Notes under the pieces: model-generated
What the model was told of the DNA's origin: nothing
The model's database searches: none
Seen by the model: the letters and a program-made list of their open reading frames with translations, nothing else
From: Nitrospirota bacterium
GTDB taxonomy: Bacteria; Nitrospirota; UBA9217
Reading direction: 5' to 3'
NCBI GenBank assembly: GCA_963751455.1
Contig: CAVVUN010000009.1
Span: 256,001-320,000, forward strand
DNA: 64,000 nucleotides
Position numbers and translations under genes: made by a program
Shown here: positions 29,741 through 36,060 of the stretch, piece after piece
Layout: each line of letters starts with the position of its first letter
How positions within the stretch are numbered: position 1 is the stretch's first letter

Positions 29741-29799
29741 GGGTAACATGCGGATGTGGGGCGTGATTCTCAACGACCCTTACGATCCGCTTGTTATGC
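29741..29799 (-). other. attC site (59 bp)
   Basis: Minus strand: GCATAAC AAGCGGATCGT...ACATCCGCAT GTTACCC; R'' contains the TAA stop of the upstream gene; extrahelical base in L''. Confidence 0.85.
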
Positions 29800-31581: not shown

Positions 31582-31617
31582 TTTATCAAACCTCTATCAA
31601 CAATTTGCTCCGATAAC

Positions 31618-33425
31618 GAGTCTGTAGAAAAAGTCATTTTGCGAGAGATCTTTTTATCGCATCTCGTCTTTGATCCAACCTGTGTGCTCAGATTATCGGT
31701 TCGTTTTGATGATCTGCTTCGTGAGTGCCCCGGTTTCTATTCGGGTTGCCTTTCATTTACTGCTTTTTTGCTGCTCTTAACCATGCTTCTCACGCAAACC
31801 CCGGCCCGTATCGATGCACCTTCAGAAGATTGTGCACAATGCAGTAGAGCCGCCACTGGATGCTCACCTTCTTTTTCCCTCTGAGACTGAATCGATCCAG
31901 GCCGAGACTGGAACGGATGTCGGCAAAGACGGGTTCGACCGTCGCCATCCTTCTTCCATAGATCAGCTTGCCCGCTACCGAATCTATCTTCTCCCGCATC
32001 TTCTGCGTGAAGGTCTTGGTCTTGTTGCTCGGTCTTCCCGGTAAAGTGCGCGAACTGGCGGGTTACGGTCACATCGGGATTCTTCATGCACTTTGCTCTG
32101 AATTGGCAGGGGATGCAGTCTCTCTTGGTTCCATGGTACTTGATGGCGTGTAGTCCATTATGGATTGCGTTGCCGCTTTTGTACATCCGTTTCCCGGCCG
32201 GGCAGATGCAGAAGCTCTTGTCAGGGCTTACCGTGAAGTCGCGAGGCTGGAAGATGATGGCTCGGTCGAATCTTTTCGCGACCTCTTTATTGAACCGCTC
32301 CTTGTGTCGGTCCGCATCGGCGAACCGGGGATCGCGGTGACGGAATTTATTGTCTGCGATGTATGCGTCGATGCCGTCCTCGATTACCATCTCCACGTTC
32401 TTTTCGGAGTGGAAGCCGCTGTCGCTGGTCAGTTTGGTCTTTTTGAAGATGTCTTCTTCTTTCCCGATCGCCTTGAAGTTCTCCCGCGTTCCTTCGACCA
32501 TGGGTTTCAGTATTGCGGATTCGGAGTCTCCGGTCGCCTCTGCATGGACCACGACCTGATGCTTGCTGTCGACCATCGCTACGCCGTTGTAGCCCTGGAC
32601 GACGCCGTGGGAGGTCTTCATGTTGGCGCTTTCATTGTCGGTGATGTTGCTCTTCCTCGGTTTGCCCTTGCTGCCGGGCTTGTCGTCGTTTTCCTCGAGC
32701 CAGGCTTTGATCTTTTTGACCTTCGCCTTGAGGGTGGAAATGTATTGCTCTTCCTTCTCTATGACCGCCTTGTCGGTCTCGGTTTTGTCTCGTTCCTTAT
32801 GCTTGCGCGATGATCTGCCGGATGGCCTTTTCCATCTTCTCTTTTTTATGCTGGAGATCTTTCTTGGTTCCGCTCCATTCCTTTGAAGCATTCGAGGGGA
32901 GCTTGCAGCCGTCTACCGCGAACATCTCTTTGCCGATCAGGCCCATCTCGTCGCAGATAAGAAGGACTTCGAGGAAGAGCTTGATCGTTTCCTGGTCATG
33001 CGAGGAGATGAAGTCGGCTATCGTCGTGAAGTGCGGCCGGGTGTCGGCGGAGAGGGCCATGAAGATGACGTTCTCGTTGCAGCAGTCGGCGATCTTCCGG
33101 CTTGAGGTGATTCCCTTCGAATAGGCGTACAGGACGATCTTTAAGAGAATCCGGGGATCGTAGGCCGGGGCGCCGGTCTCGTCGTTCTTGTAGCGAAGGT
33201 CAAATGCGGAAAGGTCGAGTTCGTTGTCGATGAGATAATGAAGCGTGTGTTCGAAGGTGCCGTGAAGGATCTGTTTATCGAAGTTGATCGGAATGAACTT
33301 GCCTTGGGAATAATCGTACTCCTTGTATTTCGCCATACGCCTCCCGTGGGTGAGGGGTATTTGATGATTCCTTACAGCGTTTTGATGGCGTCATTATAGC
33401 ATAAAATGACTTTTCCTACAGGTTC
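31618..33425 (-). mobile_element. IS1182-family insertion sequence, 23-bp imperfect terminal inverted repeats, 3-bp AAC/GTT target duplication
   Basis: GAGTCTGTAGAAAAAGTCATTTT (31618-40) vs GAACCTGTAGGAAAAGTCATTTT (rc of 33403-25); AAC at 31615-17 and 33426-28. Confidence 0.9.
31790..33336 (-). CDS. IS1182 DDE transposase in three frameshifted pieces
   Basis: GAPAYDPRILLK..Y, PHFTTIADF, AVDGCKLPSNAS, TDNES..MK, GYN, DSGF, VEPVFA. Confidence 0.9.
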
Positions 33426-33480
33426 AACACGCGCCTGACGCGCCGCCTTTGGCGCGTCGCTGTCGAGGCGCACGTTAATA
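33426..33480 (-). other. attC site interrupted at R' by IS1182
   Basis: Minus strand: TATTAAC GTGCGCCTCGAC...GTCAGGCGCGT GTT[IS]GTTATCG. Confidence 0.85.
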
Positions 33481-33495
33481 CTCTCTAAAAATAAT

Positions 33496-34377
33496 TTATC
33501 TGGGGCCGCCGTGCTCCCAAGCCATAAAAAATAATAATTGCAGCGGAGAGGTTACAACGTCAAAAGCAACGGTCAGCGGCGTGCCTATGCTCCTTATAAC
33601 GAGAGGGTAATCATATATTTTCTCTGGTCGAAAAAGATAGAATTTTATCGGAAGAGGCTGTTTTTCCTGTGGCAAGATTGCCATCCATCCGCTTGTATCA
33701 AACTCTTTTAGAATAACTGCGTCTGATTTATAACAACATAGCGAATAATAGTATAAATGAGATCCGTCAGGTTTATAATTATAAGAAAAATCAGATGGAA
33801 GAATAATCGAAGGATAATGAAAATAGCTATGAAATGGCGGAATCGCTTCGACGTGTTGGGATCGTGAGCCCACAAGCGAGGAAGACTCGCGGTCTTTAAA
33901 GTAAGTGCCTATCACAGATGGTAGCTTGAATGTGACATTTAATTCCCAACTATTATTTTTATCAACTTTTATTGCGTAGAGATCAATTGGACTAATTAAG
34001 CTTTTAAATAATGCTTCATAGTTTGTTTTTATAAATGAATCAGGGTTTCCTGGAATATAAGAACCTTTTTCTTTTATAATAAGGAAGCCATCTAAAACCC
34101 CGGGAAAGGATTTATTTTCTTTTTGATCTTGTTTAATGTGAAATGGGACACAATAGGTTTTAAAATTTACGGCCTTCGATTCCCCATGAGAATCGTCAAT
34201 TTTCCCTTTATCATAGCTGACATAAATTTGATCAGCCTCGCCAATCATCAACTTCTCTGCTCTAACCCCTTGCTGATGGTTCCACAATAAAGTCGTGGCA
34301 CATCCGCTGCATACTGAAGAGATAAACAAAAAGAGACTAAATAGAAGTATCTTCCTTGGCTTCTTAAAATACGCCAT
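33496..34377 (-). CDS. hypothetical lipoprotein (cassette gene)
   Basis: Lipobox-like VCSGC/AT; C-terminal TPLTVAFDVVTSPLQ; AT-rich; followed by attC. Confidence 0.7.
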   Translation of the reverse strand: MAYFKKPRKILLFSLFLFISSVCSGCATTLLWNHQQGVRAEKLMIGEADQIYVSYDKGKIDDSHGESKAVNFKTYCVPFHIKQDQKENKSFPGVLDGFLIIKEKGSYIPGNPDSFIKTNYEALFKSLISPIDLYAIKVDKNNSWELNVTFKLPSVIGTYFKDRESSSLVGSRSQHVEAIPPFHSYFHYPSIILPSDFSYNYKPDGSHLYYYSLCCYKSDAVILKEFDTSGWMAILPQEKQPLPIKFYLFRPEKIYDYPLVIRSIGTPLTVAFDVVTSPLQLLFFMAWEHGGPR

Positions 34378-34408: not shown

Positions 34409-34503
34409 CATTAATGCGGCAGCTGAGCCATGACCCCGAAGGGGTTCTCCCGGCGTGGTTTTCGCGCCGGGTTAGGAGCGATGGCTCAGCTGCCGCATTC
34501 TCG
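34409..34503 (-). other. symmetrical attC-like element with perfect 19-bp arms (AAT...ATT core)
   Basis: AATGCGGCAGCTGAGCCAT (34413-31) / ATGGCTCAGCTGCCGCATT (34481-99) enclosing small hairpins. Confidence 0.6.
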
Positions 34504-34518
34504 CGGCGCGAAGCGCCG

Positions 34519-34571
34519 GGAGAATCGCGCCGGTCACGCGCCGTCCGACGCTGTGGACCGGCAGGTTGGAA
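34519..34571 (-). other. short attC site (53 bp) of a gene-less cassette
   Basis: Minus strand: TTCCAAC CTGCCGGTCCAC...GTGACCGGCGCG ATTCTCC; extrahelical C. Confidence 0.7.
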
Positions 34572-34582
34572 CTTATTATATT

Positions 34583-34680
34583 TTGCAATGCAGCAGCTAA
34601 GCCTTACTTGATAGCGACCGACGGAGAGGTAGCGCAAAAAGCGAAGCTGTCAAGCGTCGGGCTCCAACTGATTGTTAGAG
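34583..34680 (-). other. attC site (98 bp)
   Basis: Minus strand: CTCTAAC AATCA GTTGGAGC ... GCTTAGC TGCTGC ATTGCAA; overlaps the 3' end of the HEPN gene. Confidence 0.75.
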
Positions 34681-35393
34681 AGAGCATTTTCATGTTTGGC
34701 TATTTCTTCTTTCAGCTCGTGAGCTCTAGCCGCAATATCTTTCCGTATACAATCTAAAACATACTTGTAACTATCCTCTCCAAACATTGATGTGGAGTAT
34801 GCGAGCGCTCCGAATAGCAAACTATATTTATTGATGATACTAATGGCTCGTTCCAAGAGAACTTCGATTTCAGCAAATTTCAACGGATCGAGCACGACAC
34901 TGTTCGGAGAAAGCGTTTCTTGCGGGTTTCTGTGCGCGCCTATATTATTCCTCCAGGCAAGGAGATGACGGACCCGGGGGTCTGCGCTAGACACAAAGGC
35001 AATGTCCGACTTCAGTTCATCCTTATCGGGTATTCGAGAGTCATTTGCCAAGCTTTCAACGAAAGGATTGTCTTTCAGCCTTTTAATAAATTCTGGAGTA
35101 TCGAATATGTGTAGGTTGGCTTGGATTGTTGCCAGAAGGCGCGGGAGGCTAAGAGATGATGTATGAGAATCGTAAGCACGACACAATCGCAACAAGGTTG
35201 CATCTACCTGGGCATCTATGGCCAGATTCCAGAAAGCGGCGGATTGATTTAGTTCGGTGACGTATTCGGGTATTGCGTTGTTAAGATTTTGATACAAATG
35301 GAAATGGACATGTGCATCAACGATGTCTCGGGCCAAGCCTTTCATCAGCGAGTCGAATTCTGCCGAGTTCTTTATTCGCATCGGCTTACTCAT
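34650..35393 (-). CDS. HEPN-domain protein (AbiU2-like; cassette gene)
   Basis: LLRLCRAYD....SL..L and Rx5H motif WRNNIGAH; predicted all-helical. Confidence 0.75.
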   Translation of the reverse strand: MSKPMRIKNSAEFDSLMKGLARDIVDAHVHFHLYQNLNNAIPEYVTELNQSAAFWNLAIDAQVDATLLRLCRAYDSHTSSLSLPRLLATIQANLHIFDTPEFIKRLKDNPFVESLANDSRIPDKDELKSDIAFVSSADPRVRHLLAWRNNIGAHRNPQETLSPNSVVLDPLKFAEIEVLLERAISIINKYSLLFGALAYSTSMFGEDSYKYVLDCIRKDIAARAHELKEEIAKHENALSNNQLEPDA

Positions 35394-35402
35394 GACTGTT
35401 CT

Positions 35403-35486
35403 CCCTAATGTTTAGGCTTCTTTCCGAGCGCCAAAAACGAAGTCCAAGTCTCGGGGCGCTCTCGCTCAGAAAGAAGCTGGTTGGAC
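35403..35486 (-). other. attC-like site at the IS91 end
   Basis: Minus strand: GTCCAAC CAGCTTCTTTCTGAGCG...CGCTCGGAAAGAAGCC TAAAC ATTAGGG; left spacer shortened. Confidence 0.6.
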
Positions 35487-36010
35487 TAAGCCGTTCGCGC
35501 GCCACGGTCTATGGAATTTCAAATGATTTCGCTTTTAAAGATTGGTCAATCTGAGCAGTGTATCCGGGGGCATGAGATGTTTTGCGAGGTCTGTTCCGGT
35601 GAAAAGCGGCACTTCCGGACAAATCCGCAAGCCCCTTTCATTGACGACTATACAGGAATCGAGGCTTTTGGGCAATAGGATATCGTTGCGAAACACAAGG
35701 CTGTTTTCGGGGATTGGGCACCGTGTCAGGTTATCGCGTTCGAGTGCGGTCGTCATATACGCGGAGGTCCTTTACAGCGCGCGGGCAGTATCGTCTCCGT
35801 TCTCATCGTTCGTTCCCCACAGTTCGGGCACTTGCCGACTTCGAACCCGGTAAGTCGAAGCAGTCGCTCCTGCCAGGTCTCGGTCTTCTCTTCCGGCTGC
35901 TTTCGCTCAGCCGTCTCAGCCCCAAGAAGCTCCCTTGCCCGCTCGATTTTCATCCTCCGGCATCGATTTCCCAAAAATCCGTAGTGCCTGATCTTGACGA
36001 ACCTGTGACT
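35487..36010 (-). mobile_element. IS91-family remnant (transposase C-terminus and downstream end)
   Basis: FVKIRHYGFLGNR...CPNCG..M...GPP; oriIS-like TTTGAAATTCCATAG near 35508-35525. Confidence 0.75.
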
Positions 36011-36060
36011 TAAAATCTCCATTGATCAGGAGTAAGAATACCAGAATCTAATAATTCCCC

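Follow-up and report, generated by a model that had tools for sequence, protein, structure and literature searches.

The GTT triplet in the R' box of attC sites has been called absolutely conserved in characterised integrons (PMC2811028), and accounts are available of the conserved attC triplet (PMC4889954), of replicative resolution (PMC3458562) and of the split R' box (bioRxiv 10.1101/2023.11.21.568050). The integrase IntI1 needs identity between the partners at the first base of R' and no particular base at this position (PMC2811028, Table 4). In this table, ATT x ATT has a value of 1, which equals the wild type, and a compensated ATT x GTT pair one of about 3e-3; the ATT sites listed there are compensated, and the combination of ATT with AAC does not occur in the table. 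When a different position of the triplet carried a non-complementary change, recombination fell from 2.2e-3 to 6e-6 (PMC2811028). Canonical cassettes insert at GWT (bioRxiv 10.1101/2022.09.11.507474). Recombinases associated with IS91 have been placed next to IntI and lack its insertion (bioRxiv 10.1101/542381); the journal version of this preprint does not name IS91 (PMC8138268). IS91 itself targets GTTC/CTTG and makes no duplication (PMC13181058).

Here, we analysed a stretch of 64,000 nucleotides from a Nitrospirota bacterium (the window; C9:256001-320000 of its genome), in which four consecutive attC-like sites, S1 to S4, read ATT at R'. As far as the accessible portions of these sources go, the sites share the R''/L''/L'/R' layout and the cut after the first base with integron attC, including the engineered ATT sites of Frumerie et al. 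(PMC2811028), and also the match between cassette start and R'' and, in the families of S2 to S4, a bottom-strand wobble bias. In contrast to the compensated engineered sites, the A is natural here, family-wide and mostly combined with a C kept at R''. The unit ending at S1 shows the same recombinase-then-transposase order as IS91 elements with an upstream tyrosine recombinase (bioRxiv 10.1101/542381) and likewise no target duplication, but it has cassette-like ends, in which the start pairs with a subterminal R'', a terminal A|TT and R|TW targets instead of GTTC/CTTG. The element ending at S4 resembles the gene-less cassettes of Vibrionaceae (bioRxiv 10.1101/2023.11.21.568050) in the lack of an ORF, in its crossover bounds and in being both arrayed and dispersed; it differs from them in its A core and in being built nearly entirely from its own attC repeated in antisense, together with two GC hairpins. 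Insertion outside att at a minimal NWT-like core is shared with the attG secondary sites (bioRxiv 10.1101/2022.09.11.507474), whose consensus is GWT, whereas the IS91-type unit is also found at A|TW. A literature search returned no paper that describes a natural ATT core or this architecture; paywalled papers, supplements and ISfinder/TnCentral lay outside this search and may list these elements. The accessible text of PMC8618304, PMC8352920, PMC9345347, PMC5737581, PMC12901181 and PMC3469429 holds nothing on a natural ATT core.

Four ATT boxes at the head of the array

On the minus strand, the R' boxes read ATTAGGG at S1 (A at 35409), ATTGCAA at S2 (A at 34589), ATTCTCC at S3 (A at 34525) and A|TTAATG at S4 (34409 to 34415, A at 34415), exactly as a first, sequence-only reading of the window had reported. 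Its statement that two sites downstream keep GTT is also correct: S5 (33422 to 33480, G at 33428, PWM score 35.3) and S7 (29741 to 29799, G at 29747, PWM score 29.7), the next two true attC sites on this strand, are canonical G|TT sites of cassettes with ORFs of 293 aa (33496 to 34377) and 595 aa, respectively. The first base of R' in an array belongs to the upstream unit and the remaining bases to the next one. When the six bases after each A are compared with the reverse-complemented R'' of the unit that follows, 5/6, 5/6, 6/6 and 5/6 positions agree for S1 to S4 (at S4, the next cassette has the R'' TATTAAC), which identifies all four as real cassette boundaries. As in integron attC, each of them combines a cut after the first R' base with an R'' that is complementary to its cassette's own start. 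The conserved GTT triplet is replaced by A|TT at S1, S2 and S4, and probably at S3. Pairing of L'' and L' with one extra base and 5/5-6-nt spacers is present in S3 and in intact mini-cassettes of the S4 type and weak in S2; this geometry is absent in S1, which has a shifted perfect stem, and in the window's copy of S4, whose L'' is deleted.

We searched the whole genome with an attC profile (PWM) that leaves the first R' base unscored and was seeded with sites carrying AAC and G or A, so unusual attC families with C or T may be undercounted. At a score >26, this resulted in 70 sites (49 GTT, 8 ATT, 3 CTT and 10 others), compared with 0 in the block-shuffled genome. After sorting 62 sites by context, the ordinary attC, a set of 45 that leaves out sites preceding a mini-cassette or a TTGGCTCC-type unit, showed 43 G, 0 A and 2 C. 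Sites preceding a mini-cassette had 7 G and 1 A (S3), those preceding a TTGGCTCC-type unit 3 G and 1 A, and the self-antisense sites 5 A. All three attI sites of the genome, located at three intI loci, read G|TT. Since the attI sites are G-type and ordinary attC keep their G, a resident integron whose recombinase has a shifted core preference, one of the two explanations offered by the first reading, is not indicated, and we rejected it. In addition, all three intI genes are broken by hairpin repeats or an insertion (C1:554k, C2:447k and C3:357k).

Several other features of the att sites were observed along the way. About 60 attC sites in this assembly are currently without an intact integrase. 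An IS1182-family element (31617 to 33427, minus strand) sits exactly after the G of S5, with another G|TT at its other end, and similar IS1182 ends follow one attI and two attC elsewhere (C3:358.5k, C15:1061114 and C8:187586), which suggests, at the level of sequence, that this IS1182 group targets att cores. Units starting with TTGGCTCCGG lie behind attC sites at C1:556203, C1:551936, C15:1068773 and C12:98977, the last one after an ordinary attC reading A|TT. One TTGGCTCCGG unit carries a small transposase gene, presumably RAYT-like, and is located inside the C1 intI, at its 3' end.

The remaining trivial account, four independent G-to-A mutations or long-read errors, is hardly credible for the run. 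The assembly does contain frameshifts (the IS1182 ORF is split) and the array is decayed; mutation may hold for S2. However, ordinary sites in the same assembly never carry A (0 of 45), and the A at S1 and S4 is conserved in many genomes and covaries with a distant base, which refutes this account for both sites. The same A recurs in dozens of other assemblies and is thus not a sequencing error, in agreement with the earlier view that drift and sequencing errors explain the run poorly. The assumption of four independent substitutions has to be given up: S1 and S4 inherit their A from element families. The context of S3 recurs at the loci L052, L031, L044 and L060, and S2 is known from this assembly alone. 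Raw reads of this genome were not found; four runs share 0.05-0.09 of its words and represent relatives only. Taken together, the ATT run is real, and it is neither an artefact, nor the outcome of four independent events, nor the product of a re-tuned integron. Judged by comparison of the sequences, two of the four A bases mark classes of mobile elements.

The recombinase-IS91 unit ending at S1

S1 (35403 to 35486, minus strand) is the terminal attC-like site of a recombinase-IS91 unit, with the R'' GTCCAAC at 35480 to 35486 and A|TT of R' at 35409. Its L boxes depart from the canonical geometry: a perfect stem begins 2 nt after AAC and the extra base is missing. On the same strand lie a conserved subterminal motif (35509 to 35520), which is kept in homologous ends and which we take to be oriIS-like, and the 3' remnant of an IS91-family transposase gene (35753 to 36022), which over 90 aa is 62% identical to the C-terminal end of the transposase at locus L095. 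The L095 homologue reaches 472.6 bits on NF033538 and is, by this measure, a Y2 HUH transposase of the IS91 family. The rest of the unit, including the tyrosine recombinase gene, is absent from this genome, in which tblastn finds only the transposase remnant.

Homologous IS91-type ends occur in 22 of 401 genomes, all from one family. The 30 parsed ends, a set that includes the window's own and leaves out two further rows without a stem partner, comprise 26 ATT, 1 ATA, 1 GTT, 1 GCT and 1 misparsed end that reads ATT, which amounts to an A at 28 of 30 positions; R'' is AAC in 28 and AAT in 2. The sequence past the A is different at every locus. The same A|TT end is present on plasmids of Caballeronia (L200) and, at a tandem junction, of Sinorhizobium (L201); these are the 2 parsable ones of 5 plasmid loci of the unit, the other three right ends being missing or not parsable. 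The conservation of the A and its recurrence on two proteobacterial plasmids mark it, from sequence comparison, as an old family trait of the unit. Hence the first reading pointed in the right direction when it named an IS91-linked recombinase: a unit of this kind ends at S1, and its family carries A at this position.

Intact units have a size of about 2.57 kb and encode a tyrosine recombinase of 285-289 aa together with an IS91 transposase of 397 aa. The recombinase stays below the cut-off of TIGR02249 (193.9 bits vs 265) and, aligned with the IntI of this genome, lacks the IntI-specific insertion. The start of the unit is complementary to its own R'' region, which is a cassette-like arrangement. 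Immediately to the left of the unit stands a G in 32 and an A in 7 of 39 distinct flanks, with 0 C and 0 T; many of the G flanks resemble attI sites and one is an attC (L095). Of the 12 complete units, two are followed by TA on their right side; the cut therefore lies after the first base. None of the 12 shows a target-site duplication. The flanks read R|TW with variable neighbours, and a tetranucleotide of the GTTC/CTTG type was not found.

One reading of these ends is that the A of S1 is the terminal base of a HUH (IS91) end, joined by the Y2 transposase without first-base pairing, and that the resemblance to attC is mimicry or helps in targeting. The unit does encode an IS91 transposase, and the lack of duplications agrees with IS91, for which insertion of bottom-strand circles without target duplication is described (PMC13181058). 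Yet R|TW targets at attI/attC-like sites differ from the GTTC/CTTG of tested IS91 members, the R'' pairs with the unit start in a cassette-like manner, and this explanation is silent on S4, which has no transposase. We therefore regard it as quite improbable.

A separate A-type channel, in which the unit's own tyrosine recombinase acts on A|TT by first-base identity and insertions at G|TT are rarer or made by the host IntI, also appears unlikely, if somewhat less so. The catalytic residues of the recombinase seem to be intact, and the IntI patch is absent. A flanks account for 6/11 in genomes without a detected IntI and for 1/28 in IntI-bearing genomes, but 5 of these 6 come from one genome, and counted by genome the difference is 2/5 vs 0/10 (p=0.095). 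Among the compensated AAT/ATT variants, only L104 has a known left flank, and it is located at an A|TT site; A|TT ends exist on rhizobial and Burkholderiales plasmids. On the other hand, 32 of the 39 flanks are G, and the first attC detected downstream of the unit has a G in 8/9 loci, a count that covers only loci with a detected attC and in which one row was re-read by eye. By the same count, we rejected the idea that the IS91 end serves as an A-type attI that gathers A cassettes.

Two loci of the unit show additional rearrangements. On a Mesorhizobium plasmid, a group II intron lies within the left end (L199:217-2100). At L104, the unit with compensated AAT/ATT splits a membrane-transporter-like gene, presumably SulP-like, at its A|TT site.

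The mini-cassette at S4 and its neighbours S3 and S2

The unit that ends at S4 is a damaged copy of a gene-less self-antisense mini-cassette (34415 to 34524, minus strand), identified by alignment with its family in this genome and at 44 outside loci. It consists of a start hairpin, an antisense copy of the attC right arm, a second hairpin, the inner R'', the right arm and the A at 34415. The antisense copy begins with AAT at 34497 to 34503, the inner R'' GGAGAAC is located at 34444 to 34450, and about 20 nt of the L'' arm are lost. The earlier claim about the R'' triplets holds insofar as AAC is kept; the compensating AAT assigned to S4 belongs to the antisense copy, and the true R'' is GGAGAAC.

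Across the family, the start is followed by a GC hairpin, an antisense copy of the own attC, a second hairpin and an attC whose inner R'' matches the start, with a total length of 118-163 nt (median 130, n=31). No ORF is present, the neighbours vary and the junctions read N|TT, as expected for a gene-less cassette. A pattern search yielded 9 genome and 35 metagenome loci, and 5/9 named records are Nitrospirota. DNA matches, some of them partial, are found in 32 of 64 family genomes; in this set of often fragmented genomes, presence of the mini-cassette is associated neither with IntI (18/33 vs 14/31) nor with the IS91 unit (12/25 vs 20/39). A search of plasmids gave no match for the mini-cassette, and one viral contig matched.

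In the pooled census, the R' base of the self-antisense sites is A in 30 and G in 6 of 36, and the inner R'' is AAC in 35/36. The antisense base covaries with the R' base (25 T/A, 7 C/G and 1 parse slip among the 33 complete ones of 44 loci, some of which are redundant), and covariation also links the inner R'' to the start of the cassette in several sequence types. Mispairs in the inner L boxes are 14 G·T in the bottom strand vs 0 in the top strand; the corresponding numbers for ordinary attC are 51 vs 9. This bottom-strand wobble bias indicates that the inner attC is maintained like an ordinary one. In the outer stem, 487/510 pairs are Watson-Crick and all four pair types occur. On this evidence, both folds are maintained.

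The outer fold is the predicted one on both strands. The canonical attC fold is disfavoured by a median of 14.4 kcal/mol in the array, compared with 3.5 for ordinary attC, and by 16.2 kcal/mol in the circle; the inner fold would thus need kinetic or protein help. The repeated locking of cassettes suggested by the first reading would fit the mini-cassette alone, whose antisense copy is predicted to hide its attC fold.

These folds also bear on a different explanation, namely that the mini-cassette recombines via its outer AAT/ATT stem as a double-stranded attI-like site, or that it is a structural RNA or a locking device kept by the host, in which case the A would weaken excision of the mini-cassette and of the next cassette. 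We give this a small but appreciable chance. The near-perfect pairing of the outer stem and its dominance among the predicted folds speak for it, as does the enrichment of A in upstream sites (see below), which is expected under an identity rule. It is harder to reconcile with the covariation of the inner R'' and the start, with the retained bottom-strand wobble bias and with upstream bases that are mostly G. For a structural RNA, no Rfam match came near its gathering score; the search of the mini-cassette returned chance matches far below it.

Variants of the module were found at other positions. Two different self-antisense mini-cassettes, a G-type with a GAT start and an A-type, both with a matching inner R'', stand in tandem at C1:550371-550118. 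In composite sites (C2:441648, L151 and L085), a gene cassette or an IS91-type end carries an added antisense-arm module.

S3 (34519 to 34571, minus strand, PWM score 36.5) is an ordinary attC with AAC at R'' and belongs to an empty 64-nt cassette (34525 to 34588). In an alternative register, it has a 5-nt spacer and reads G|AT at 34526; among its relatives in the genome, GTT is combined with a spacer of 5 or 6 nt. Ordinary attC that precede a mini-cassette show 5 A/18 G, compared with 2 A/70 G elsewhere (p=0.008, overstated by the relatedness of the sequences). For this comparison of 5/23 vs 2/72, 3 misclassified mini-cassettes were moved and 2 rows with C dropped; the uncorrected value is 5/70 with p=0.05. 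The A at S3 was probably induced or chosen by the neighbouring mini-cassette. This could have happened by target preference, by conversion at insertion or by hairpin correction to match the T in the first hairpin of the mini-cassette.

S2 (34583 to 34680, minus strand) is a decayed attC with canonical spacing and AAC at R'', and its PWM score of 24.0 is below the census threshold of 26. It belongs to a gene cassette (34589 to 35408) with an ORF of the AbiU2-type HEPN group (34650 to 35393; PF18734, E 1.5e-27), whose start agrees with R'' at 5/6 positions. The L boxes contain two top-strand wobbles, which correspond to A·C mismatches in the bottom strand, and the site does not fold as attC. Neither S2 nor the HEPN cassette has a homologue in 63 family genomes (DNA) or 400 phylum genomes (protein); elsewhere, two distant plasmid matches were obtained, and viral matches were chance hits of 28 aa. 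The A at S2 is most likely a decay mutation.

A wobble-tolerant core as a possible common principle

The reading that we favour, and hold to be probable on balance, is that the run represents the head of a decayed array in which two A-carrying, gene-poor elements landed nearby, and that the combination of A with a C at R'' is likely a wobble-tolerant core. The recombinase-IS91 unit and the mini-cassette share three features: A at R', an AAC in the R'' corresponding to their start, and neighbour junctions of exactly N|TW. In the published docking model of IntI1, as we read it, either mixed A/G pair would contain an A·C mismatch, and recombination is about 300-fold lower in these pairs. With A and AAC on the folded bottom strand, the G of R'' would still pair with the C that a G-type partner brings in, and the T of the element would wobble on a G. 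With an A-type partner, the roles would be swapped, leaving one G·T mispair either way and never an A·C. Such a core would allow the elements to enter G-type attI and attC and also A|TW sites; under this model, a single tolerated G·T mispair is likely what lets both elements slot into G and A sites. The purine-only flanks of the IS91-type unit (32 G and 7 A of 39) match the model. Evidence against it comes from the costly mispair elsewhere in the triplet and from the hidden inner fold of the mini-cassette, and the model alone predicts no enrichment of A upstream, of which some was seen.

In natural integrons, the G of GTT counts as invariant; experiments have shown no more than that another base can work when the partners match. 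Two widespread natural classes of elements that keep an A would offer a direct test of one wobble pair at the docking base. Tolerance of such a pair would bear on the target range of cassettes and on attC detectors trained on GTT, as well as on what role the closest relative of IntI, the recombinase encoded next to IS91 transposases, plays. More tentatively, and at less than even confidence, recombinase-IS91 units may be autonomous cassettes: their recombinase, a sister of IntI, would act on an A|TT core as a natural second address code beside G|TT, kept from Nitrospirota-like hosts to rhizobial plasmids, with the G·T wobble as a means of crossing into ordinary integrons for units and mini-cassettes alike. 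If true, the units and mini-cassettes would serve as a living model for how attC arose from a double-stranded site.
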